Made by a program: the position numbers and the translations under genes
Shown here: positions 2,798 to 53,944 of the stretch, piece after piece
Position numbering within the stretch: position 1 is the stretch's first letter
How the letters are laid out: every line of letters starts with the position of its first letter
Notes under the pieces: model-generated
What the model was told of the DNA's origin: nothing
Database searches by the model: none
The model's input: the letters and a program-made list of their open reading frames with translations, nothing else
DNA from: an uncultured Candidatus Saccharibacteria bacterium
GTDB taxonomy: Bacteria; Patescibacteriota; Minisyncoccia; Ryanbacterales; 2-02-FULL-48-12
Length of the DNA: 64,000 bases
Reading direction: 5' to 3'
Assembly (NCBI GenBank): GCA_964479945.1
Contig: CAYZNS010000002.1
Location: forward strand, 13,172 to 77,171

Positions 2798-3304
2798 GGT
2801 TTTGTTTGTTTTCTTTTTTTTCTTCAGGATCAGGCAAGGAAAGAAGTAAATCCCAAAGTTTTCTTAATTTTTCGTTTTTATCTGGAACTTCTTTATAAGC
2901 AACTTCTACCTGGAAGTTCGGCGTTCGTTTCTGCCGCATATATTTTGTTGCTTTTTTCAATGATCTCTTTTTTCAAGACCTCAAATGAAAAAAGAGATCG
3001 GCGTAAACAAAGAATGCACAGCTTAATGTGATCCTTTGTCGTCCCGACCTCTTCGGACGATGTCGCGGCTTGGGAGTTTTTTGTTAATTAATTTTTAATC
3101 TCCCAGACCGCGTGGATTATTCGATTTTTTACTTACGCTTCTGCTGTTTAGCAAAAGCGATACCTTTTCTGATCCTTGAGCGGTGTTCTTCTCTTATGAA
3201 CTCTCCAATCGCCTCAAGGAGCGACTGCAGAAATTTTTCTTTCGCATCCATAATTTTTCTACCTTTAATCTTTATGAATCACGCCCGGACCTCACGGGGG
3301 AAAT

Positions 3305-26579: not shown

Positions 26580-26693
26580 TCCAATCGCAGAAAAATTGAA
26601 AATGTAAAATGCAAAAATCAAAATGACAATTCAAAATTTTAAAATTTTACATTGTCATTTTACATTTTGATTTTTAAATTTTACATTACGCTT
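26580..26693. repeat. AT-rich imperfect inverted repeat (aaaatgtaaaatgcaaaaatcaaaatgacaat / attgtcattttacattttgattttt)
   Basis: ~40-bp arms between rnj and trpS. Likely a terminator/promoter module. Confidence 0.5.
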
Positions 26694-28960: not shown

Positions 28961-28995
28961 ATTTTGAATTGCAAGATGATCCCCTCCTATTATCT

Positions 28996-29112
28996 CCGGG
29001 TGTGCTCCCTCACCAAAAGTTTTGGTGAGGGAGTGTGCCGAGCCGGGCTACTCACAATCCCGCTTTTAGCGGAATGTGCGAAGCTCGGTTAGCCACAATC
29101 CTGACGCTTTAG
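28996..29112. repeat. family-B repeat element (ctccctcaccaaaagttttggtgagggag...agctcggttagccacaatcc)
   Basis: Contains the perfect 17-bp palindrome caccaaaagttttggtg. A second copy lies at 45286..45381 and a related palindromic variant at 37859..37924. Confidence 0.6.
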
Positions 29113-30686: not shown

Positions 30687-30848
30687 ACATAAACTATAAG
30701 ACTTTTCACACCTTATTCCCATATTACGAACAGTGTCCGAGTTGTGCATAACCCAATCCCCCACTATACTATCCCTATGGCAAATCCTCCACCGCAACAA
30801 TCGTCCGGGTCCGTTTCTCTGCACCCCGCCTCATTTGCAGGGGTACGC

Positions 30849-33455
30849 ATGCCGCCGCAAAACGTGGAAGCCGAAATGTCCGTTTTAGGATCGCTCATGC
30901 TAGACAAAGACGCATTCAATAAAACCGCCGATATCTTAAAACCGGCTTGTTTTTATCGTGACCAGCATCGGGTTATTTATGAGGCAATGCAGGAATTATT
31001 TGAAAAGCGCGTGCCGATTGACGTGCTTTCCACATCCAACCGGCTCCGTGAAAAAAAGAAATTGGAAGAAACCGGCGGGGTCAGTTACTTAACGCAGCTC
31101 GTGAATATGGTGCCAACTGCGAGCAATGTTGCGCATTATGCCGATATCGTAAACCGCAAATACGTGCTGCGAAGCATTATCTCCATATCGCAGGACATAA
31201 GCCAATTGGGCTATCAGGAATCCGACGACGTAGATATATTGCTGGACGAGGCAGAGCGAAAAATTTTTAGCATCTCGCACGGCTCGCTCCGCCAGCGGTT
31301 CGCCCCCGTTTCCGAAGCGCTGGAAGCCGCATGGGATCGCATAGACAATCTTCAAAAAGGCGAGCATCTGCGTGGCGTCCCCACAGGCTTTACTCAGCTG
31401 GACAATCTTCTCTCCGGACTCCAAAAATCGGATATGATTGTCCTTGCCGCGCGGCCTTCTTTCGGTAAAACGAGTCTCGCACTTGATATAGCGCGTAAAG
31501 CGGCCGTCAAGGAAAACACGCCAGTCGGCATATTTAGCCTGGAGATGTCCACCGAACAGGTTATTGACCGCCTTCTTGCGGCAGAAGCCAATGTGGATTC
31601 ATGGCGGCTCCGCACGGGCCGGCTTTCCCATGATTCCGATGATTTTCTACGCATCCGCGAAGCGCTGGACCGCCTTTCCAAAGCGCCAATTTTCATAGAC
31701 GACGAGCCATCCAATAACATTCTTCAAATGCGCGCGATGGCCCGGCGGCTGCAAACCGAACACGGGCTGGGGCTTATTATCGTGGACTATCTGCAACTTA
31801 TTACCTACCACAAAGGAACCTCCGACAGCTTGGTACGCGAAGTTACGGAAATCTCCCGCGCATTGAAAGGCCTCGCGCGCGAACTCGAAGTGCCTGTGCT
31901 CGCCATCTCCCAGCTTTCGCGCGCCGTAGAGCAGCGCCATCCGCCGATACCGAAATTGTCGGATTTGCGGGAATCCGGATGTCTTACGGGAGATACTCTC
32001 CTGACCAATGCCGATACGGGGAAACGCACCCCGATCAAAGAACTGGTCGGTAAAACAAATATTCCGATATTTTCATTTACCGCGGACCATAAAATAGAAC
32101 GACGCCTTATTTCCAACGTATTTCCAAACGGGAATAAAAAAATATATCAAATCACAACGAGAAGCGGGCGCACCATAAAAGCGTCAGAGAATCATCCATT
32201 TTTTACCATACACGGTTGGCGCGCTCTTAAAACATTGACTGCAGGCATGCATGTTGCCGTCCCGCGCCACATAGCACCAATGCATTCCGTTTCTGTAATG
32301 TCTGATTCGGAACTTACCCTGCTTGCTCATCTTATCGGAGACGGATGTATTCTTCCTCGCCAACCCTTCCATTACACCAGCGCAGATGAATATAATATTG
32401 CCGTTGTAAGCGCATCAGCAAACAAACTTTTTGGCATACAGCCGCGCACGATCCGCCAAAAAAATTGGTATCATATATATCTGCCATCGCCCTATCGTCT
32501 GACACGCAATAAAAGACATCCAATATCAAATTGGTATAAAAAGATGGGGCTTCCTTTATCAAGATCATATGAAAAAACTCTCCCGGATTCTCTATTCCAA
32601 TGCGGTAATAAGAAAATTCAACTCTTCCTCCATCATCTTTGGGCAACAGACGGAAATATATCTTATAAAAATATTCCTGCCAGGAAAACTGCAGGGTCAA
32701 TATATTATGCTACTTCAAGCACTGTTCTCGCAGAACAAGTACAACATCTTCTCTTGCGTCTTGGTATTTTTAGCACTCTGCGGACAATCCCGCATAAAAA
32801 ATACCGGCCTATGTATCATGTATACATAGAAGGCAGTGTCATGCAAATCCGTTTCTGTGAACTCATAGGATCATATGGAAAGCGAGGCAGTATCGTTCCC
32901 GAACTTCTCAAAAAACTGAAATTAATCAATCCAAATACGAATACGGATATCATACCACGCGAAGCATGGCGTATCCTTATTGAACCGATAAAAGAATCTT
33001 TACAGATAAGTTGGCGGGATTTCGCAAAAAAAATTGACATGGCGTACTGCGGAAGCGCTCTCTTTAAAAACGGGTTGTCTCGTAATAGAATGCTACGCGT
33101 AGCAGAGGCTTTTAGTAGCGAACCATTATGTAAAATAGCACAGTCGGATATTTATTGGGATAAAATAGAATCTATTATCTCTCTTGGAGAAGAAGAAGTT
33201 TTTGATGCGACGGTGCCCGAAACCCATAATTTTATCGCAAATGATATTGTTGTCCATAACAGTATTGAACAAGATGCGGATGTCGTCATGTTCCTTTATC
33301 GGGAGGATAGATACAAAGACGACTCCGCGCAAAAAAACGTAACGGAAGTCCAGATTGCAAAACACCGCAATGGCCCCTTGGGCAAAGTAAGCTTATATTT
33401 TAATCCGAATACTATCTCGTTCTCCGATATCGACAGGCGGGTTGAGGAAGTGTAA
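30849..33455 (+). CDS. dnaB: replicative DNA helicase DnaB interrupted by an intein
   Basis: Start at MPPQNVEAEMSVLGSLM. Walker A ARPSFGKTSLAL and the H4 motif SDLRESG|SIEQDAD are split by the intein. Extein ~476 aa. Confidence 0.85.
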   Translation: MPPQNVEAEMSVLGSLMLDKDAFNKTADILKPACFYRDQHRVIYEAMQELFEKRVPIDVLSTSNRLREKKKLEETGGVSYLTQLVNMVPTASNVAHYADIVNRKYVLRSIISISQDISQLGYQESDDVDILLDEAERKIFSISHGSLRQRFAPVSEALEAAWDRIDNLQKGEHLRGVPTGFTQLDNLLSGLQKSDMIVLAARPSFGKTSLALDIARKAAVKENTPVGIFSLEMSTEQVIDRLLAAEANVDSWRLRTGRLSHDSDDFLRIREALDRLSKAPIFIDDEPSNNILQMRAMARRLQTEHGLGLIIVDYLQLITYHKGTSDSLVREVTEISRALKGLARELEVPVLAISQLSRAVEQRHPPIPKLSDLRESGCLTGDTLLTNADTGKRTPIKELVGKTNIPIFSFTADHKIERRLISNVFPNGNKKIYQITTRSGRTIKASENHPFFTIHGWRALKTLTAGMHVAVPRHIAPMHSVSVMSDSELTLLAHLIGDGCILPRQPFHYTSADEYNIAVVSASANKLFGIQPRTIRQKNWYHIYLPSPYRLTRNKRHPISNWYKKMGLPLSRSYEKTLPDSLFQCGNKKIQLFLHHLWATDGNISYKNIPARKTAGSIYYATSSTVLAEQVQHLLLRLGIFSTLRTIPHKKYRPMYHVYIEGSVMQIRFCELIGSYGKRGSIVPELLKKLKLINPNTNTDIIPREAWRILIEPIKESLQISWRDFAKKIDMAYCGSALFKNGLSRNRMLRVAEAFSSEPLCKIAQSDIYWDKIESIISLGEEEVFDATVPETHNFIANDIVVHNSIEQDADVVMFLYREDRYKDDSAQKNVTEVQIAKHRNGPLGKVSLYFNPNTISFSDIDRRVEEV
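31980..33260 (+). other. DnaB intein (427 aa) with LAGLIDADG homing-endonuclease domain, inserted at the DnaB-b site
   Basis: Begins at Cys (CLTGDTLLT) and ends VVHN followed by Ser. Block B TIKASENHPFFT. LAGLIDADG-like motifs LLAHLIGDGCI and LHHLWATDGNI. Confidence 0.8.
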
Positions 33456-33504: not shown

Positions 33505-34113
33505 ATGTCCTATCCAAAACACATCCAACGGCTCTCCGAACTCTTGACAGAACTCCCCGGCTTGGGCCCGCGGCAAGCCATGCGGCTTGCGTTTGCGCTC
33601 ACTGAAAAGAATGACGCCTGGCGCCAGGAATTCTTGGCTCTCATCGAAACGATGAGCAGCGAACTTGGCGCGTGCGCGCTTTGTTTCCGCATAATGGAAA
33701 AACGCGTGGCGGCGCTGTGCAATATATGCTCCTCCCCGAGCCGCGCAAAAGACAAACTGCTGGTGGTAGAAAAAGAATCAGACTTGGAAATGTTCGAACG
33801 CGCGAATGCCTTTGACGGCCTCTATCATGTTACGGGCGGCACGCTCTCCCCGCTTGAGAAAAACCCGGGCGAGCGTCTGCATTTGCAGGAATTGTTCAAT
33901 CGCATCAAAGCGGACCCGCAGCGCGCATCTTTGGAAGTCATCATTGCCACATCCAACACATTGGAAGGCAACCAGACCGCAAACTATATTGAGCGCATCT
34001 TGGCTCCCCTGCAGATAAAAATAACCCGCTTAGGCCGCGGGTTATCTACGGGCGCGGAGATCGAATATGCGGATCCCCTTACGCTAGAGGCAGCGTTGAA
34101 GAACAGGAACTAG
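33505..34113 (+). CDS. recR: recombination protein RecR
   Basis: HhH N-terminus, C4 zinc finger (CALCFRIMEKRVAALCNIC) and Toprim domain. Confidence 0.9.
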   Translation: MSYPKHIQRLSELLTELPGLGPRQAMRLAFALTEKNDAWRQEFLALIETMSSELGACALCFRIMEKRVAALCNICSSPSRAKDKLLVVEKESDLEMFERANAFDGLYHVTGGTLSPLEKNPGERLHLQELFNRIKADPQRASLEVIIATSNTLEGNQTANYIERILAPLQIKITRLGRGLSTGAEIEYADPLTLEAALKNRN

Positions 34114-34114
34114 T

Positions 34115-34172
34115 CTGCTGTCAAACACTAAGTGTCTGACAAGCTTGTCAGACACTTAGTGTTTGACAGCAG
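34115..34172. terminator. perfect 58-bp palindrome (29-bp arms) between convergent recR and rplU; overlaps the last 17 nt of rplU
   Basis: Every position was checked manually: position i pairs with 34287-i across 34115-34172. It contains two copies of the TGTCAAACACT half-site motif. The right arm encodes TAVKH* of L21. Confidence 0.7.
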
Positions 34173-34476
34173 TAATCTCAACCTCCGTAAAATGCTGGCG
34201 ATGCCCTTTTTTGCGGCGGTGGCGGGTTTTTGAGTGGTAGCGCAGATTTGTTATTTTTTTGGCGCGTCCATGGCGAAGTACCTTTGCGGCAACGTGGACT
34301 CCCGCAACCAGGGGCGTCCCGATTTTCGCCTCCGTTCCGTCTTCTACCAATAGCACCTCCTCAAATGAAAAATCCTTACCCTCTTCCACGGGCAGTTTTT
34401 CTATTTTGAGCTTTTTCCCCGGTTCCGCGATGTATTGCTTTCCTCCAGTTTTGATGACCGCAAACATGCTATACAT
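34156..34476 (-). CDS. rplU: 50S ribosomal protein L21
   Basis: (MYS)MFAVIKTGGKQY signature. No rpmA (L27) downstream. Confidence 0.85.
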   Translation of the reverse strand: MYSMFAVIKTGGKQYIAEPGKKLKIEKLPVEEGKDFSFEEVLLVEDGTEAKIGTPLVAGVHVAAKVLRHGRAKKITNLRYHSKTRHRRKKGHRQHFTEVEITAVKH

Positions 34477-34542
34477 AGTAACAAATCGCCTGTAAAAGTA
34501 AAGCCCCATGCCGCTGTCCGGCATGGGGTGTTCAGATGAGAA

Positions 34543-46081: not shown

Positions 46082-49000
46082 TTATGGATTTACCAAAAAC
46101 GTGGTGGGGTTCTCTGTCATGGTAAGATAATTAACACGCGCGCGATTAGCATAATCAATCCCCAGATAACTATAATATGCCCCGACGCGATAGAGTTTGG
46201 CAGGATCAAGAATAGGACCATCATACGCTTTTGAACCAGTCTGACTGCTGATAGGAACCGAAACAGTGCTTCGATATACCTGGGTTCTGCTTACTTCTTC
46301 ATGAACATGAATCGAGTAACCGGCTGTAATGGTGCTTGCCCAGTGAGCGGGCCATCCGCTTTGCGGCACGGTCCACTGAATGGTAAACGGCTGCAGGACC
46401 GGCGAGAACGCGGAGGTTGGACTTATAATACGCGTAGAAGATAATGCATGCTGATGCAGCATATCGGAAATAATGGTTTCAATGCCTGTGGAATCAACTA
46501 CCGCCACATAATAACTATATTCCCCGATGGGAACAGTATTGCCATAGTCAAATATGCGCGATGTTGCGGTCCATGCTTCATAATCTGTCCTGCAGGAAAA
46601 CCCGAGCGACCAATTTAGATCAGTGGTAACGCTCGTTCCGCACGCGGTACTGGCAAGTGGAAATGATCCACTCAACGCAAATTGAGTTTCTCCCGGTTTT
46701 TTCTCATAGAGCCGAATAGCGCGCACATCAGTAAATTTTGTTCTATCAAACCCGAAGCGAACAGACCGCACAAAGCGATGTGAATCGTACTGACTCCCTC
46801 CCCAATATCCGCCTTGATCTGATTTGACTTCTATACTCAATACTTTTGTAGCACTCGCTCCCGCGCTGTCGGTAACACCCGCGGTAAATGTATAGGTCCC
46901 GGGTACCACCAATGGCCATTGTGAAATCTGGCCGGTTGCAGCAAGTTTAAGCCCATTGGGGAAATTGCCTCCCACAATCTGCCATTGATAGGGCGCAACG
47001 CCTCCGGTTGCCGAAAGCGCTACACTACGCAGGGATCCATCTTGATTAACTCCAAAATAAGATATACCCCACGCGCCAGCTGGTAAATTAGTAGTTGTAA
47101 TAGAAAGCGTTGATGTGGTCAAAGCCGTAGAATCTATCCAAATAGTGGTTACGACCTCGGGCATTGCGTTATAAGTATCCCAAGCCAATGAGTCTTGATT
47201 CATGATAATACGGCCGGCATCAATGAGCACAATATACTTCTTTGCGGGATCAAGCGCTGGACCATCATAGACAAAGGATCCGGTTATGGATCCGGCGGGC
47301 GCATAATTATACATAAATTTCTGCCAATACACCTGCCGCGTATCGCTATCATAAAGAGCAATGCGATAACTAGGCGCTGTACCTACAGGCCAACCACTCG
47401 TAAGTGTCCATTGAAATGTTATAGGAGAACCGATTGTTTGAGCGCCAGATGGGCTTACAATTTTTACCTTCGGCGTTGCATACTTCTTGATTATTTTTGA
47501 TGAGGCACGCGCAAATCCGGATGGAGGAAGGATTGTTTCATTACCTGAAGAATCAACAGCTGCAACGTAATACTCGTAGGTACCAACCAGGTAGGTTGAT
47601 GAATGAAATTGGCTGGTGCGCCGGGCGGTCCATTGATCCAATGAGCCAAGTGGATCAGAGCGTCCACAGCCAAAATCCAATGCCCAACCGGTGACGCTAA
47701 CAACATTACTGTTACACCTCCATGACACGAGTAGCGAAAAGGTTGCCACAGAGTTAAACGCACTGTCTCCCGGCCGCTTTTCATAAATGCGTAGCGATTG
47801 TACAGTTGGATACGACGAGGTGGCGAAAGTGAAATTGACCCGATCAATAAATGTATCCGGCAGCCATCCATTGTGCCATGTGGCAGAAGCGGGTGCGTAA
47901 CCGACTCTGAAAGGACCGTCACTTGCATCCTTTATAGCTGGATCAGCCGAGTCAGAAATCTCAATCGTAAATCCAGTAAGGTTCTGCATGTTAGCCGGAA
48001 CACTCCAAGTATAGCTGAATGTACCGCTTTCCGCGTTCTGGGGAATTTTGGTTCCCAATGTCGTGAAGAGATTTCCATCCTTAAGTATTTTAATGGCAAC
48101 AGTTTTGGACACTAAACCGCTTGAGGTCCATGAAATAGTAACCATTTCATCAACCATCAAAAGTTCTCCGCTGTTTGGATAGAGTACCATTATGCTGGAT
48201 GCAGGAGCCGACGAAAGAGATGCAACGATCGGAGCCCCCGCAATCTCAATGGCTAACACCCGAGATCCGATGACACTTCTTCCATCAGTGGCCTCCACTG
48301 TGAACTCGGCTACCCCCGCGATGGAAGGCATACCGGAGATAACGCCGCTTGAAGAATCAAGAGCAAGACCTGAAGGCAATGAACCGACTTTCACACTCCA
48401 ACGGAGCGGCGCAACACCATTTACCGCCGTAAGTGCTGCACGGTATTCTTTCCCGACAACACCTGCGGGCAATCGTTCGTGGAAAAAGATATCACCCTTG
48501 AGATTAGAATCGCCAGGAACGAGATTTGAAAATGCTGAAGCAAAGGCCACAAATCGACCATCCGCGCTGATTGCTGGATCCCCGAAGATATGCGCAGCCG
48601 AACCCTGTTGGCCGCTATCAGAAATACTTACGCGGCTTGTCCGTTTTGTCTCCCGGTCATACACAAAAATATCGGGTTGGGAATTGGTATCTCCGACTAT
48701 GAGGTTTGAGGCGTAAGATTCAAAAACCATATAGCGGCCATCAGCACTGATTGTAGTATTTACGCTATGACCATTCCCTTCTCCTCCCATCGAGGAAACA
48801 CTCACCCGAGTCGTGGTCTTAGCAACACGATCGTGGACAAACACATCCCCCACGCCATTAGCATCACCAGAGATAAGATCAGATGCGCTAGAAACAAACG
48901 TGACATAGCGGCCGTCAGAACTTATTGATGGCGCATAAAGAGAGCTTGGCCCTGCGATACCGGTACTCTGGAGGCCACTATTCGTGATACTCACACGCGT

Positions 49001-52000
49001 AGTCTCTTTTGTATCTCGATTATGCACAAACACATCGCCAAGACCATTTGTATCACCGGAAACAAGCCCCGTAGAAAAAGAAAGGAATGCCACAAACTTG
49101 CCATTGGCGCTGATGGCCGGATAAAAACTTGATGCTCCAAATCCCTGACCACCGCTTGAAGAAACGCTCACGCGGGTTGTTGTTCTGGTCTCTCTATCGT
49201 GAATAAAGATATCCTGCTGTAAGTTGGTATCACCCGTAACCAAATTTGATGCATCAGAAGCAAAAACAATATATCGCCCGTCGGCGCTCAAACTCGGCGT
49301 CTGACTCACGCCATTTGACTGACTACCACCGTCGGCTATGCTCACGCGGGTTGTTGTTCTGGTCTCTCTATCGTGAATAAAGATATCCGACATGCCATTG
49401 GTGTCATCTGACACAAGGTTGGTTGCTGTTGAGCTAAAAACTATATATCGCCCGTCAGCGCTTATTACTGGTACATCATCTGTTGCTGGTGATGGACCAT
49501 TTGCCTGTGTGCCGTCATTTGCTACATTCACACGGGTTGTTGTTTTGGTTTCTCGATCATGAATGAAGATATCTGACACGCCATTGGTGTCATCTGATAC
49601 CAAGTTAGTGGCTATTGAGCTAAATACCACATACCGTCCATTACTACTTATAGCGGGGCCGCCGCTACTTATATTGTTTCCCTGCGTGCCATTACTTGAT
49701 ACACTTACGCGGGTCGTGGCAGGCGGTGTGATATAAATTGCGGCGCTTGATACGGTTGGCGCAACTGTGATACTAAAGTTCTCGGTGTCACTCAAACCAT
49801 CCCTATCAGAAACTTTGGCAGTAAAATTGAAAGTGCCAGATGTAGTAGGATTGCCCGAAATGCTTCCCTGGTCATTAACGGTGGTAAGCGCAAGGCCAGC
49901 CGGAAGCGCGCCGGCCGCAATGCTCCAGGCAAACGGCGGCGTTCCGCTTTGCACAGAAATTTTTGCGCTATACAGTGTTCCAACTGTTCCGCCTGGTAAC
50001 TGTGCAAAGACAATTTCAGGAACCGGCTGCGGGGCAGTTGTTGTTTGCGTAGAAACTGGCGCAGGAACCGGTCCGTTGGAAAATACCGCGCCGCGTGCAA
50101 CAGAAAGAACAGCACCTCCTATTTCTACATGGGGAATCAGTTGATTAACAAAACCTCCCCATGCGTAACTCCCCGGGCCGTCAGTAATCAGTGCCCAGTT
50201 GGCGCCGGAGTCGGATGATTTATACAACCCATCGCCTTGGCATGTGGTATAGGTAATCGCGTACATCGCTTCGCTTTCAGCGCTACCCAAAACTCGACCG
50301 TTTTGGAATGAAACTGGCAGCGTTCCTCCCCGAATCCATGTAGAGCCGTGATCCATTGAAGTATATGCAACAAGATGTGTTGATCCCCGTTCTACTGTTC
50401 CGCCAGTGTAGGGATCTTCTGGAATTTTCCCGATAAAGAACAGTTGTCCATCTTTATTTTTAGCAATTCTGTACTGGTGGGGATTGCCGCCCCAGTAAAG
50501 ATACGCGCTGAACGTTTTTGTCAAGGTTCCATTGATCCAGCGATAGATGCCGCGGTACTGCTTTGAATCGCTTACTTGTATATCTTCTGAATCCATAAAT
50601 ACCAGTGCGCCATCGTCCGCCTCCACGATGGATTCTAACCATCTGGAATGCGTGAATAATTTCTGCCACGTTGCCCCGCTATCGGCGCTGCGATATACCT
50701 CGGCAGTGCCATAGAGTGAGAGACCAACGGTGGCGACAAGCACGTTGTCTCGCTGCACAAGAAGATTATTCACTACTACGGAATCGGACGGCGAAAGCGC
50801 AGACGGCGGCTTTTGCACGAATATCCATGTGGCGCCACCGTCATTACTTTTCCAAAGTCGCGAGCCGCCGGCAAATAACACACCATTTTTATCCTCTGCG
50901 AGGGAGCGTATAGAATCATAGGTGCGATTCGGGTCAGATACAACATAGGGGATATTCACCAATGTCCACGTTTTCCCGTTATCAGATGATTTGCCGATAA
51001 CTGGAACTTTCGCGGTTATTGTTCCCGCGCTGTCTTTTACTGATTTCACTCCGCCCGCGATTAACGCGCCGTTTTTAGTTTTGATCATGTCTGCCATGAC
51101 GATATTTTCCAGATTATTTTTTGTTGAATCGCTTGTAGAAAAATTCCATGTTGCCGGATCCCATCCCGTTTCAAAACTTCCTACCCATTGAAAGTCGGGG
51201 GTAGCTGGACACGTAAGGATTGCCGTGGACGATGCTGGCGCAATTGTGATACTAAAGTTCTCGGTGTCACTCAAACCATCCCTATCAGAAACTTTGGCGG
51301 TGAAATTGAAAGTGCCAGCGGTGATAGGATTGCCTGAAATGCTTCCTTGGCCATCAACGGTGGCAAGCGCAAGGCCAGCCGGAAGCGCGCCGGCCGCAAC
51401 ACTCCATGTAAACGGCGGCGTTCCGCTTTGCACAGAGATTTTTGCGCTATATGGTGTGCCAACTGTTCCGCCTGGCAACTGTGCAAAGACAATTTCGGGA
51501 ACAGGATTGTTTGCTACTGAAAACAAAATAGGATAATCATCCGTGTTGACGTTGCCCGCGCTATCCTGACATCGGACATTATATCCAAATCCTGTTGGGT
51601 ACGACGGACTTATCGACATCACCGATACAACCGAGGAATGAGATGTGGAATTCGTATTGGAAAATGTATTTGCCATTTGCTCATAACTTACCCCTGACGC
51701 ATCCGCAGAATATTTACAAGTAGCATTTTCATCAGTATTCAATGATATAGTGACGGATGTCGTGCCTGCGGGAAACGTGCCGGAAGGCGCTTCATTGAAA
51801 CGCACGGGAGGAGTGATATCCGTAGAAGGCGGCAGAACCGATCCGGTTATAGTGGAGGCAGAACCTGAAAACCAGCGAACGTGAACGGCGCTGTTTCCTT
51901 CAAAACAATATTGATATTGTTCTGACTCTGCAAGCGCTGTTTTCGTTTGTCCAAATCCTCGCAGACTGCGAGATTTACTATTTATGCATGCCTGAAAAAC

Positions 52001-52939
52001 ATTCTCTCCCGTTTTTGCCGCGAGTCCGACCACTCTCCCTGGAGTAACACGGTCAAAACAAGGCCGCGTAGTGGAACTTGCGCAATTACTGCCGGTAAGA
52101 CCAGAAAGCATTGCTCTGGTTTTAGGCCCCACAATGCCAACCGCCTCAATGCCATTCTTTTCTTGAAAGCGCTTTACGGCCGCTTCCGTCGCGGGCCCAT
52201 AAAACCCCGTTGCAAGGCCTTGGGGATAAACATTTTTATCTTGCGCCAAAAATTCCTGTAATTGTTTTACATCATCTCCGGTAGATCCGCGTTGTAATGT
52301 TCTCGTAAGCGCGAGTTCTGACATAGGAGATGCTGATCTTTGAATTCTTGAAACAACTTGCTGTTGAGATTGTAATTCCGCAACTTGTGTTTGTAATAAT
52401 TGGATCCGGTTTTGTAATTCTTTAGTAAGCTGTTCTTGAACTTCCCCGATTTGCGTTCGCAAGTTTTGTATTACTTCTTTTGTCTCTTGCGATGATTGCT
52501 GTTGGACAACTTCCGGTTGAATAACAGGAGACTGCGGACATGTATAACAAACTTCCGCTTTTGGCGAAGACCCAAGTTGAGTAGGTGTTGCTTCTTCCGC
52601 CGGTGTTGCAGACTGATCTGTTCCCACATAAGGCTGTGCCGGAGTTGCCTGTTGCGCTGGTTGTGTGGAAGTAGGCGGCGTGCTTACCGGAAAAGAAGGA
52701 ACAATAGGAGTTATTTTTTTATCCGGTGTCGCAGGAGTTGCGGGAGTACTGGTTCCTCTCGCTGGTTGAGCAGGAGTAGCAGCCGCAAACAACGACAAAA
52801 AAGCCTGCTGTAAAGACGCAAGCTGTGATTGTAATTGTTGGATGGTATGGAAATCGTTATGATCCGCAAACGCGGCAATTGGCGAGAATGCTAATGCAAT
52901 AAAAAAACTGCTTGATAAAAAAACATGCTTTATCTTCAT
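46082..52939 (-). CDS. 2285-aa secreted multidomain surface protein with coiled-coil, peptidoglycan-binding, putative-Ig (cadherin-like), BNR/Asp-box propeller and ~9 PD40/TolB-like repeats
   Basis: Signal peptide. PG_binding_1-like LQRGSTGDDVKQLQEFL...GPATEAAVKRFQ. Repeated SxDxGxTW Asp-boxes. Repeated DIFIHDRETxTTTRVSV WD40-like blades. Two Ig-like domains near-identical at the DNA level. Confidence 0.7.
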   Translation of the reverse strand: MKIKHVFLSSSFFIALAFSPIAAFADHNDFHTIQQLQSQLASLQQAFLSLFAAATPAQPARGTSTPATPATPDKKITPIVPSFPVSTPPTSTQPAQQATPAQPYVGTDQSATPAEEATPTQLGSSPKAEVCYTCPQSPVIQPEVVQQQSSQETKEVIQNLRTQIGEVQEQLTKELQNRIQLLQTQVAELQSQQQVVSRIQRSASPMSELALTRTLQRGSTGDDVKQLQEFLAQDKNVYPQGLATGFYGPATEAAVKRFQEKNGIEAVGIVGPKTRAMLSGLTGSNCASSTTRPCFDRVTPGRVVGLAAKTGENVFQACINSKSRSLRGFGQTKTALAESEQYQYCFEGNSAVHVRWFSGSASTITGSVLPPSTDITPPVRFNEAPSGTFPAGTTSVTISLNTDENATCKYSADASGVSYEQMANTFSNTNSTSHSSVVSVMSISPSYPTGFGYNVRCQDSAGNVNTDDYPILFSVANNPVPEIVFAQLPGGTVGTPYSAKISVQSGTPPFTWSVAAGALPAGLALATVDGQGSISGNPITAGTFNFTAKVSDRDGLSDTENFSITIAPASSTAILTCPATPDFQWVGSFETGWDPATWNFSTSDSTKNNLENIVMADMIKTKNGALIAGGVKSVKDSAGTITAKVPVIGKSSDNGKTWTLVNIPYVVSDPNRTYDSIRSLAEDKNGVLFAGGSRLWKSNDGGATWIFVQKPPSALSPSDSVVVNNLLVQRDNVLVATVGLSLYGTAEVYRSADSGATWQKLFTHSRWLESIVEADDGALVFMDSEDIQVSDSKQYRGIYRWINGTLTKTFSAYLYWGGNPHQYRIAKNKDGQLFFIGKIPEDPYTGGTVERGSTHLVAYTSMDHGSTWIRGGTLPVSFQNGRVLGSAESEAMYAITYTTCQGDGLYKSSDSGANWALITDGPGSYAWGGFVNQLIPHVEIGGAVLSVARGAVFSNGPVPAPVSTQTTTAPQPVPEIVFAQLPGGTVGTLYSAKISVQSGTPPFAWSIAAGALPAGLALTTVNDQGSISGNPTTSGTFNFTAKVSDRDGLSDTENFSITVAPTVSSAAIYITPPATTRVSVSSNGTQGNNISSGGPAISSNGRYVVFSSIATNLVSDDTNGVSDIFIHDRETKTTTRVNVANDGTQANGPSPATDDVPVISADGRYIVFSSTATNLVSDDTNGMSDIFIHDRETRTTTRVSIADGGSQSNGVSQTPSLSADGRYIVFASDASNLVTGDTNLQQDIFIHDRETRTTTRVSVSSSGGQGFGASSFYPAISANGKFVAFLSFSTGLVSGDTNGLGDVFVHNRDTKETTRVSITNSGLQSTGIAGPSSLYAPSISSDGRYVTFVSSASDLISGDANGVGDVFVHDRVAKTTTRVSVSSMGGEGNGHSVNTTISADGRYMVFESYASNLIVGDTNSQPDIFVYDRETKRTSRVSISDSGQQGSAAHIFGDPAISADGRFVAFASAFSNLVPGDSNLKGDIFFHERLPAGVVGKEYRAALTAVNGVAPLRWSVKVGSLPSGLALDSSSGVISGMPSIAGVAEFTVEATDGRSVIGSRVLAIEIAGAPIVASLSSAPASSIMVLYPNSGELLMVDEMVTISWTSSGLVSKTVAIKILKDGNLFTTLGTKIPQNAESGTFSYTWSVPANMQNLTGFTIEISDSADPAIKDASDGPFRVGYAPASATWHNGWLPDTFIDRVNFTFATSSYPTVQSLRIYEKRPGDSAFNSVATFSLLVSWRCNSNVVSVTGWALDFGCGRSDPLGSLDQWTARRTSQFHSSTYLVGTYEYYVAAVDSSGNETILPPSGFARASSKIIKKYATPKVKIVSPSGAQTIGSPITFQWTLTSGWPVGTAPSYRIALYDSDTRQVYWQKFMYNYAPAGSITGSFVYDGPALDPAKKYIVLIDAGRIIMNQDSLAWDTYNAMPEVVTTIWIDSTALTTSTLSITTTNLPAGAWGISYFGVNQDGSLRSVALSATGGVAPYQWQIVGGNFPNGLKLAATGQISQWPLVVPGTYTFTAGVTDSAGASATKVLSIEVKSDQGGYWGGSQYDSHRFVRSVRFGFDRTKFTDVRAIRLYEKKPGETQFALSGSFPLASTACGTSVTTDLNWSLGFSCRTDYEAWTATSRIFDYGNTVPIGEYSYYVAVVDSTGIETIISDMLHQHALSSTRIISPTSAFSPVLQPFTIQWTVPQSGWPAHWASTITAGYSIHVHEEVSRTQVYRSTVSVPISSQTGSKAYDGPILDPAKLYRVGAYYSYLGIDYANRARVNYLTMTENPTTFLVNP
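49780..50045. repeat. intragenic near-identical ~270-bp duplication (copy 1; copy 2 at ~51245-51510)
   Basis: Plus-strand ORF-track translations of the two regions are ~90% identical. They encode VPEIVFAQLPGGTVGT...DRDGLSDTENFSIT. Confidence 0.7.
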
Positions 52940-53152
52940 ATTAAAAAGAAACCGCTACCAACTTTGAGGCGACATGCATGGTCATTACATTATAGTAATA
53001 AAATTCGACGTTTTTATAATACCACACGCCTGCAATTTAAATTTATATTCCTGTGGATAAAATTACGGTACACTATAGACATTACATTATGAAATAGCAC
53101 TCTGACGACCCGAACGCTAATTGGCGTTCGGGTCGTCAAAGCACAATGAGCG

Positions 53153-53944
53153 CTATTTCATACTGTGCGTTCTATATATCTCTACAGAAGCAGTTGCCTC
53201 CCGATATTGGCAATAGTCGCATCCCTTTCTTTGAACAGGCATATCATCCGAATCTAGACATAGCTTGATGTCTCCAAGCATTCCTTCAACCCATCCGTCA
53301 TCTCCGGTATAAGGAATAAGTTTTACATCAAACTCCAGCTTGCCGTCAAAAGCGGCGCGGTCTGTGCGCCCGTTGCAGTACACAAAATACCCCGTGTCAG
53401 ACACTAAGTGTTTGACATTACCATGCCGCAGGAGCCATTGGTATATTTCCATCTGCCGCTTGTAGCCCATCTGCCAATCGGCATCTATATTCACCTCCGC
53501 ATCTTTGGCGGTACTTTTATAATCAACCACGATCAGTTCTTTTTTTGGGTTTACCCAGATGTCATCTACGGCGCCCGTAACCAAAAAGTTTGTCGGCTTG
53601 TGCAAAAACTGCACGCCCTTAAAATTCTCCCGCCATTCGTCCATCATTTCGTGCTGAAATGGCACCGCGTCCACGCCATAATGTTCCATCAAAGGGTGCT
53701 TGGTATTTGCCGCGCGATGAATGTCAAATTCTTTTTTTAAAAGTTTGTCCACCGCGGAGTTCAGATTAAATGGAAACCCGGGTGGGCGTCCGATACCCAG
53801 CCGCCGGTCCAGATAAAAACACCGTGGACACTCGATGTAAAGCTCAATTTTGGAACGCGAAAGCTTAAACGGCTCGCTGCCGCCCGGCGCATACACATTC
53901 CTCGTCCGGTTTGCATGGTAGTATTGGGACATATTCGTAATCAA
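53153..53944 (-). CDS. PD-(D/E)xK nuclease with Cas4/AddB-like Fe-S cysteine cluster
   Basis: N-terminal ECPRC, IVVDYKS (D-x-K) and C-terminal C...CDYC. Carries an in-frame copy of the TGTCAGACACTAAGTGTTTGACA palindrome at 53395-53417. Confidence 0.5.
   Translation of the reverse strand: MITNMSQYYHANRTRNVYAPGGSEPFKLSRSKIELYIECPRCFYLDRRLGIGRPPGFPFNLNSAVDKLLKKEFDIHRAANTKHPLMEHYGVDAVPFQHEMMDEWRENFKGVQFLHKPTNFLVTGAVDDIWVNPKKELIVVDYKSTAKDAEVNIDADWQMGYKRQMEIYQWLLRHGNVKHLVSDTGYFVYCNGRTDRAAFDGKLEFDVKLIPYTGDDGWVEGMLGDIKLCLDSDDMPVQRKGCDYCQYREATASVEIYRTHSMK

Follow-up and report, generated by a model that had tools for sequence, protein, structure and literature searches.

The recR-rplU junction and the 64-kb window

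The stretch of DNA analyzed here (the window, 64,000 nucleotides of contig CAYZNS010000002.1 from an uncultured Candidatus Saccharibacteria bacterium of the candidate phyla radiation [CPR]) carries recR and rplU, the latter coding for ribosomal protein L21, in convergent orientation, and a perfect 58-bp palindrome lies across their junction (Table 1). As a sequence-only reading of the window had claimed, all bases of its 29-nt arms pair (100% complementarity, no spacer; CTGCTGTCAAACACTAAGTGTCTGACAAG followed directly by CTTGTCAGACACTTAGTGTTTGACAGCAG), and it covers the rplU stop codon. The palindrome is composite, a 23-bp hairpin unit being present twice in inverted orientation, and with its 4-bp spacer and perfect 29-bp stem it has the form of the inverted doublets called REPINs (repetitive extragenic palindromic [REP] doublets forming hairpins). 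The doublet lies 1 base beyond the recR stop codon (34111-34113), and unit copy 1 starts after 5 bp. The right arm codes for the end of L21, A-V-K-H-stop, that is, its last four codons and the stop codon, the Ala codon being located in the palindrome flank, outside unit copy 2. Because the whole palindrome is present in two independent assemblies (JGI and ENA), an assembly artifact can be ruled out as its source; a third contig (Logan) breaks within it. No filled/empty polymorphism within the same species was seen at this site among the three assemblies.

The history of the junction was examined by fetching 80 CPR loci encoding RecR relatives (loci are cited by their L numbers) and by comparing the L21 and RecR ends at 16 orthologous junctions. 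The convergent recR-rplU arrangement is kept in 36 of the 80 loci, not counting the window's own three copies (L069-L071) and locus L024, which was selected by the motif. In L076, L079-L082, L084, L086, and L088, the junction is empty, with stop codons that overlap or lie at most 3 bp apart and no palindrome. RecR in the relatives with an empty junction is 43 to 46% or 68% identical to that of the window, the values for L076 being 68% for RecR and 82% for L21. Other junctions hold other elements: an unrelated perfect palindrome, TAGGCGACTCGACCGCCAATTGGCGGTCGAGTCGCCTA, in L072 and L073 (~3120-3160); GTCATTGCGAG-type repeats and GTCATTGCGAGC../GTCATCCCGCAC..-type inverted repeats in L074 (~2440-2560) and L077 (~1415-1520); and GC hairpins followed by T runs in L078, L145, and L150. 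In L024, from another CPR genome, a form of the 23-bp unit with a TCG loop lies 18 bp past the rplU stop. Hairpin elements of several unrelated kinds occupy the recR/rplU junction, which makes it a hotspot.

RecR ends in ..ALKNRN in the window and in ..ALKNRR or ..KNRK in relatives, and L21 ends in ..TEVEITAVKH in the window versus ..TEVEITKI(GA) in close relatives. Since the orthologous junctions are empty or occupied by unrelated palindromes, the doublet would be an acquired element, and since the L21 of relatives ends in ..EITKI(GA) with no palindrome, the doublet would have replaced the native C terminus and donated a stop codon while leaving recR untouched. The same L21 ends speak against the earlier suggestion that this sequence is constrained at the protein and structure levels simultaneously. 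Attempts to rebuild the preinsertion end of rplU by removing 50 or 58 bp restored no sensible C terminus.

When the window was searched with the degenerate pattern TGTCARACACTNNGTGTYTGACA, the only matches were the doublet and two single units, one in a nuclease open reading frame (ORF) and one in intergenic DNA, in line with the earlier observation that the core 23-mer recurs twice. Four copies at three sites in 64 kb compare with none expected (0.00 matches in window shuffles), and no degraded copies with up to six arm mismatches were found in the window beyond the shuffle background.

Table 1. Location of the palindrome, its units, and associated genes in the window
Feature	Position	Strand	Description
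58-bp palindrome	34115..34172	.	Inverted doublet (REPIN-like) of the 23-bp hairpin unit plus symmetric non-unit bases (AGCT between the units, CTGC/GCAG outside)
Hairpin unit copy 1	34119..34141	+	TGTCAAACAC-TAA-GTGTCTGACA; single A.C mismatch at arm pair 6/18
Hairpin unit copy 2	34146..34168	+	Exact reverse complement of copy 1; minus strand codes V-K-H-stop of L21
recR	33505..34113	+	Pfam Toprim_4, RecR_C, RecR_HhH; intact convergent upstream neighbor of the doublet
rplU (L21)	34156..34524	-	Pfam Ribosomal_L21p, E 3e-34, residues 20-120 of 122
Hairpin unit in nuclease ORF	53395..53417	-	In frame as VKHLVSD; arm mismatch identical to that of the doublet
PD-(D/E)XK (Cas4/RecB-like) nuclease ORF	53153-53944		PF12705
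Intergenic hairpin unit	58884..58906	.	Perfect, TGTCAAACAC-TAA-GTGTTTGACA; the 25-bp palindrome spans 58883-58907
SET-like fragment (69-aa ORF)	58913-59122		Weak match, E 0.004, under the Pfam cut-off
RNase III gene	61390-62085		

The copy in the Cas4-like nuclease gene is indeed in frame, as had been noticed before. Nuclease homologues that are 66 to 84% identical align without gaps in this region, with VKHLVSD standing in place of a native [NV]-G-[FHY]-x-V-S-[DS]. This rules out a simple insertion, the alignment being that of a similar native segment replaced with no length added. The DNA of this copy is common to the relatives L156 and L157 save for the third base of the Ser codon, and the segment of the L158 nuclease reads GTT GGG CAC GCA GTG TCC GAC, with 8 differences in 21 nt, concentrated in two codons. 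To judge from these alignments, the nuclease copy looks like a patch conversion of natively similar sequence, or an old event kept as DNA, and not like a fresh cut-and-paste event. The arm variant GTGTCTGACA is due to the Ser codon in this copy; since the variant is found in both units of the rplU doublet as well, sequence exchange or common descent may therefore link the two sites.

The perfect intergenic unit lies between the start of a YgjP-like (DUF45) gene (58844) and the stop (58913) of the SET-like fragment. The earlier description of a 25-bp palindrome upstream of the DUF45 gene holds, at a distance of 39 bp, but the assignment of the adjoining ORF to a SET domain is weak. Its N terminus (..GLGLFAKISFRRGDFIIEYVGDLIS..) resembles the beginning of a SET domain that is then cut short, and a word-based search returned no homologues of this ORF. 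With the hairpin only 6 bp beyond the stop of the fragment, the region may therefore be a rearrangement scar.

At the RNA level, the doublet is predicted to fold with -49.3 kcal/mol on the plus strand and -50.4 kcal/mol on the minus strand (z of about -10), the perfect unit at 58884 folds with -14.3 kcal/mol (z of -5.3), and the nuclease copy folds no better than its shuffles. In the entire window, only a tRNA-Leu reaches the Rfam gathering score. The proposal that the palindrome serves as a terminator is half sustained: the hairpin is very stable (-49 kcal/mol), but neither strand has a U tract or T run beside the doublet, and a terminator scan made no call at 34115-34172. The minus strand of the unit at 58883-58907 was called terminator-like, with a weak T-rich tail. 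An origin of the 58-mer in situ, as a bidirectional recR/rplU terminator with the other two copies as unrelated look-alikes, would fit its position exactly between convergent genes, the very stable hairpin that both transcripts would receive, and the GC hairpins with T runs at the same junction in L078, L145, and L150. However, aside from the missing U tract and scan call, many relatives have no intergenic hairpin, and the 23-mer is found again elsewhere in the window and in ~30 further genomes, its contexts being unrelated and including coding sequence; we regard such an origin as highly unlikely. A 27- to 29-bp RNA duplex is a good substrate for RNase III, the gene for which is present in the window, and REPs near stop codons affect mRNA decay and translation in Escherichia coli. 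The doublet may act at the RNA level, through mRNA decay or RNase III.

A dispersed hairpin family in CPR genomes

One scan of 185,579 species-representative genomes (596 Gb) with the 23-mer pattern yielded 80 sites in 68 stretches, versus ~0.5 expected by chance. The records bearing the motif nearly all have names of Patescibacteria (Kaiser-, Adler-, Taylor-, Vogel-, Wildermuth-, Nomura-, and Uhrbacteria, Paceibacterota, and Saccharibacteria), and the GC content of the loci spans 32 to 64%. Several copies per metagenome-assembled genome (MAG) were also found in CAZPCZ01 and CAZRYK01 (L001, L004, L013, L017, L018, L028, L032, L036, L058, and L067), which are labeled "uncultured Gammaproteobacteria" (GC, 44 to 64%), and one copy in L014, which is labeled Isosphaeraceae. 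Such copies could reflect mislabeled bins, contamination, or real spread beyond the CPR. The pattern had no match in 2.9 million viral contigs, and a phage origin was accordingly rejected.

The unit has a 10-3-10 (or 11-1-11) architecture, with 10-bp arms TGTCAAACAC/GTGTTTGACA and a 3-nt loop. Its dominant form is TGTCAAACAC-TCG-GTGTTTGACA, the TCG loop occurring in 72 of the 83 sites with full flanks; the TAA loop is found in 6 of the 83, namely, the four units of the window and those of L006 and L046. The latter two share no homologous genes with the window, and orthology of these sites was rejected. All units end in TGTC...GACA, and the flanks are unrelated between sites, except that the palindrome itself extends by at least 3 bp into them in 24 of the 83 sites (1.6% expected). 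Partial half-site duplications are common. Further 10-3-10 palindromes with TGT...ACA ends and CCG or CGG loops were seen in other CPR loci, at L083 268, L088 440, L125 3852, and L141 4197, one example being TGTGGGAGGT-CCG-ACCTCCCACA. This suggests a wider superfamily of 10-3-10 TGT...ACA hairpins in the CPR.

The positional bias of the family is that of REPs, short stem-loop palindromes in several dispersed copies that are overrepresented in extragenic DNA. A crude ORF model places 42 of 84 sites in intergenic DNA versus 9.9 expected (p of 1e-17) and 31 of 84 (~37%) within ORFs versus 66.8 expected. The intragenic hosts are housekeeping genes, namely those for phosphoglucomutase, MnmA, MiaA, KsgA, RsmI, Rpe, LigA, GDH, ComEC, Lnt, and an NiFe hydrogenase subunit, and the copies are always read in either of two open frames, VKHxVFD (26) or SNTxCLT (10). 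Other phyla also have REPs inside genes, as well as REPs located no more than 20 bp from both gene ends of a convergent pair (Di Nocera et al. 2013, PMC3733652).

This distribution bears on another proposal of the sequence-only reading, that the 23-mer is the double-stranded operator of a dimeric helix-turn-helix regulator of the neighboring genes. The unit has the appropriate dyad symmetry (11-1-11 or 10-3-10) and carries TTGACA on both strands, and one copy precedes the YgjP start by 39 bp. Yet no promoter-like (sigma-70-like) site was called at either intergenic copy of the window, which disposes of TTGACA as a -35 box, and the other sites of the window lie between convergent gene ends and inside a coding sequence. 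Across genomes, moreover, the neighboring genes are unrelated, the flanks are not conserved, and the orientation of the loop flips freely. The covarying regulator that had been anticipated does not co-occur with the hairpin, the sole co-occurring gene being that of a transposase of single-stranded DNA (see below). An operator function is thus very improbable.

A hairpin-flanked transposase gene

Several of the motif loci, which were read as 3- to 8-kb pieces of MAGs, contain three to four units in a 1-kb span, surrounding an ORF of ~220 aa that matches Pfam Y1_Tnp (PF01797, IS200-like) with 38 to 41 bits versus a cut-off of 23. By tblastn, a Y1_Tnp gene is present in 14 of the 68 motif loci versus 0 of 81 CPR loci selected without regard to the motif, i.e., the 80 fetched through RecR and the window itself (Fisher p of 7.6e-6). 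In the six closest loci, one unit lies 4 to 84 bp from each gene end, and one lies inside the gene, coding FVKH[S/R]VFD. The flanking copies carry the loop in either orientation.

The association also holds when approached from the protein. A protein-only search returned 3,232 homologues, with CPR names in all that are named, and the family comprises 804 clusters at 50% identity (E <= 1e-30). Four loci picked by protein alone (L152-L155) have a 10-3-10 hairpin on both sides of the gene and in frame inside it, with arms that covary with the transposase lineage: TGTCCAACAC..GTGTTGGACA in L152 and L153, TGTTYAACAC.. in L154, and TGTCCAAAGC-TCG-GCTTTGGACA at all three positions in L155. The neighbors of the gene differ between these genomes. 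Homologues of 25 to 40% identity show the identical three-part layout with unrelated hairpins (ACTTGGCGCT-CGA-AGCGCCAAGT, CAGCGAAGGA-CCG-TCCTTCGCTG, and ATGTTCGACTT-CGT-AAGTCGAACAT), and two transposase subtypes can occur in one MAG, as L003 and L037 on one contig or L019 and L027 in JAHIER01. Because the hairpins flank the gene and covary with the protein lineage, the pattern is that of a REP with its REP-associated tyrosine transposase (RAYT), or "REPtron," found here at six motif-selected and four protein-selected loci in related genomes. This architecture, including hairpin-protein coevolution, has been described for RAYTs (Quentin et al. 2018, PMC6006769).

The transposase linkage weighs likewise on the idea that the 23-mer is a chromosome-organizing or DNA uptake signal (parS-, matS-, or DUS-like) that a conserved CPR protein binds in double-stranded form. 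CPR bacteria rely on taking up DNA, and a conserved palindrome in coding and noncoding DNA over a wide phylogenetic range might be expected of such a signal. But its density is low and patchy, the 23-mer being absent from the loci of the seven closest RecR relatives; its sequence is not universal and varies with the transposase lineage; and its copies form tight clusters in and around the transposase gene. We consider a signal of this kind most improbable.

In the alignment of the transposase, an HUH motif (N-H-F/Y-H; NHFHL) and a Y-I/V-x-x-N motif (YIHxNP) are invariant. An AlphaFold model built with 62 homologues (mean pLDDT, 87; pTM, 0.86) had as its top Foldseek match in the PDB 4ER8, the E. 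coli RAYT with its REP hairpin (E of 3.9e-6; TM score of 0.67, target), followed by the IS608, ISDra2, and IS200 TnpA proteins, with E values of 2e-4 or weaker for IS608 and ISDra2. Sequence-only searches of the PDB with the transposase or its profile gave just marginal matches to ISDra2 TnpA (E of 0.1 to 0.7). In the predicted structure, the transposase thus looks like a RAYT, with a Y1/HUH fold closer to TnpA-REP than to IS200 TnpA.

This similarity helps to weigh the possibility that the units derive from an autonomous insertion sequence (IS) of the IS200/IS605 type, as its solo ends or remnants, and are not REPs on which a domesticated, single-copy RAYT acts in trans. The transposase gene is flanked by hairpins on both sides, like the left and right ends of IS608, its neighbors vary between genomes, the TnpA proteins of IS608 and ISDra2 are the next-best structural matches, and an identical 23-mer at 32 to 64% GC suggests horizontal spread. 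Conversely, the top structural match is a RAYT and not an IS transposase, and the protein is of ~220 aa with YIHxNP, not of the short 130- to 150-aa Y..Q type (Quentin 2018, PMC6006769). Moreover, the solo units have unrelated flanks with no adjoining transposase remnants, and the left and right hairpins have the same sequence. Derivation from IS ends therefore appears unlikely, if less so than an operator or uptake function.

Each RAYT-like gene examined contains one or two in-frame internal copies of its own flanking hairpin (L152-L155, L003, L005, L010, L019, L026, and L031, and also L022, L027, L047, L056, and L068). The internal copies covary with the flanking ones at the level of single bases. 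The first internal hairpin is at a constant site, in a variable loop that connects the N-terminal strand/helix with the HUH strand, and the only internal low-confidence stretch of the AlphaFold model (residues 51 to 62, predicted disorder) coincides with the region around the peptide that it encodes. Among 117 homologues, the loop residue is Arg in 67, Ser in 49, and Pro in 1; Arg and Ser correspond to the codons CGA and TCG, a single loop read in both orientations. Residues at arm positions 5/19 covary in the same set (K-F, 73; Q-F, 21; Q-L, 16; K-L, 0). The internal hairpin thus appears, on this codon-level pattern, to be constrained as nucleic acid and not as protein.

Two further observations concern the internal hairpin. 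The RAYT gene of L041 (4351-4852) is without its N-terminal 57 residues and begins with the internal hairpin, which is what a deletion from the upstream hairpin to the internal one would leave. In protein P0004, the internal hairpin carries a half-site duplication, FVKHLVKHRVFD.

Other repeats and genes were noted in the window. At 59137-59188, a second inverted doublet (ACTTGGGTGTCCGGTTCCCAAGT, a 5-nt spacer, and ACTTGGGGAACCCGACACCCAAGT; 19-nt arms, 95% complementary) overlaps the stop of a PIF1-like helicase gene (59163-60857, minus strand), one arm coding the final ..NLGVGFPK. Its ends (ACTTGG..CCAAGT) are similar to the hairpins associated with the RAYT subfamily of L003, L010, and L019, and it may belong to a second REP family whose effect on the helicase parallels that of the 58-mer on L21. 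A third repeat family (~28995-29095, ~37855-37925, and ~45285-45375) has the form GGAATGTGCCGAGCC...AGCTCGGTTAGTCACAATCC, a long imperfect hairpin with no Rfam match; a perfect 14-1-14 palindrome, CTCCCYCACCAAAA-G-TTTTGGTGRGGGAG, stands ahead of two of its copies, the lone difference in it being a compensatory T:A to C:G change. At 53100-53141, in the interval from the stop of the nuclease (53153) to the start of an ORF for a 2,285-aa surface protein (46082-52939), there is another palindrome, which has no spacer and 21-nt arms that are 90% complementary. AT-rich imperfect intergenic palindromes with short tandem motifs (AAAGTGC/AAAATG type; 75 to 81% complementary) lie at 26592-26687 and 41485-41582, and the DnaB helicase gene (30744-33455) is split by an intein carrying a homing endonuclease domain of the LAGLIDADG type.

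A candidate REP/RAYT branch in the CPR and its relation to known systems

Taken together, we consider it probable that the 23-bp unit is a REP-type hairpin, that the 58-mer is a REPIN-like inverted doublet, and that the family is cognate to a RAYT-like Y1/HUH transposase in the CPR. The sequence family, its tie to the transposase gene, its positional bias, and the empty orthologous junctions are what the data show directly. By analogy with E. coli TnpA(REP) and with the TnpA proteins of IS200/IS605, the transposase would bind the hairpin extruded on single-stranded DNA and would cut and rejoin DNA nearby, so that copies would be scattered chiefly to intergenic DNA and gene ends, with occasional in-frame placement in coding sequence where this is tolerated. 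It is in this sense that we infer mobilization by the transposase, and the earlier notion of a small mobile or recombinogenic palindrome gains support from the tie of the hairpin family to a Y1/HUH protein. One doublet would have landed in the zero-length convergent recR/rplU junction, where it would have replaced the last codons of L21 and supplied a stop. Both transcripts would thereby gain a 3' hairpin of 27 to 29 bp, which could serve as a transcript-end barrier, a stabilizer, or an RNase III substrate, and not as a canonical terminator.

Several points weigh against this interpretation. The sole NCBIfam match of the transposase, REP_Tyr_transpos, remains under its cut-off (31 to 42 versus 80 bits), and no position up to 15 nt to either side of the hairpin is conserved among the 83 sites, the GT[AG]G or CGTC tag at the hairpin foot being absent. 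Exact copies number at most ~11 per MAG versus tens to hundreds for classical REPs; singletons predominate, and inverted doublets are rare. In the window, tblastn found no RAYT-like gene, and the units carry the TAA/TTA loop and not the dominant TCG; no RAYT with the matching internal VKHLVFD was present among the 120 closest homologues and 150 cluster representatives. The nuclease copy is shared with relatives and is not a clean insertion, so that gene conversion or an old event must be invoked. Finally, the relatives with an empty site are just 43 to 72% identical in RecR, and the boundaries of the insertion cannot be drawn exactly.

The REP/REPIN kind of element is known, and its CPR branch appears to be undescribed: in the searched literature, none of four forms of the 23-mer sequence occurs in any paper, and no paper connects RAYT, REPtron, or TnpA-REP with CPR taxa. 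We tentatively propose, as a possibility that falls somewhat short of probable, that the 804 clusters represent a large undescribed CPR branch of REP/RAYT, in which cognate hairpins inside the transposase ORF provide self-recognition, one hairpin is conserved base by base across CPR classes of 32 to 64% GC, and hairpins are routinely absorbed into housekeeping proteins, donating stops. The in-ORF hairpins point to autoregulation on mRNA or DNA, or to continual reinsertion or gene conversion of the hairpin into its own gene.

REP/RAYT systems have been studied almost solely in Proteobacteria and a few other cultured phyla and are debated as host-domesticated transposases. CPR genomes are streamlined (~1 Mb), with costly intergenic bases and genes that often abut, and hairpin repeats persist even there, where they have come to serve as gene ends and as coding sequence. 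The cognate hairpins inside the transposase ORF offer a testable handle on how a RAYT may sense and limit its own activity. For annotation, the family explains the odd conserved peptides VKH[SR]VFD and SNT[RE]CLT inserted in unrelated CPR proteins, as well as contig breaks at palindromes and altered C termini like that of the window's L21.

Among known systems, intrinsic terminators and REP-type stabilizers of mRNA 3' ends share with the 58-mer a stable stem-loop at or over convergent stop codons. Unlike intrinsic terminators, the doublet lacks a U tract, and its sequence turns up again both at unrelated locations and within coding regions. Rickettsia palindromic elements (RPE) and intragenic CGTC/GTAG REPs are similarly found in frame in housekeeping genes, where they add or replace a short peptide and leave the protein intact (PMC3733652). 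RPE-1, however, is 100 to 150 bp long, and the CGTC type has no known flanking transposase, whereas the unit described here has 23 bp, TGTC..GACA ends, and a cognate transposase.

The elements of the IS200/IS605 family (IS608 and ISDra2), in which a TnpA acting on single strands recognizes subterminal imperfect palindromes, resemble the present system in fold, in the HUH/Tyr chemistry deduced from sequence, and in their flanking hairpins, and recognition of the hairpin on single-stranded DNA is presumed here as well. They differ from it in that the CPR protein is longer (~220 aa), its left and right hairpins do not differ in sequence, solo hairpins without the gene number in the hundreds, and no tnpB lies nearby in the loci read.

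The closest counterpart is the REP/REPIN-RAYT system, exemplified by the E. coli REPs and bacterial interspersed mosaic elements (BIMEs) with YafM and by the REPINs of Pseudomonas fluorescens. The CPR family departs from it in the absence of a 5' GT[AG]G guide tetranucleotide, in its perfect 10-bp stem with a 3-nt loop in both orientations, and in its low copy number, mostly as singletons. It also departs in the hairpins carried in frame within the transposase ORF, in the ~37% of copies located in coding sequence, in the identity of the 23-mer in distant CPR lineages, and in the lack of a RAYT in the 64-kb window. Both, however, consist of short dispersed hairpins, chiefly intergenic and often at convergent 3' ends (PMC6006769, PMC3116915, and PMC3733652), and both have a cognate Y1/HUH gene flanked by the hairpin in a REPtron, coevolution of hairpin and transposase, and the inverted doublet, with 4ER8 as the top structural match.

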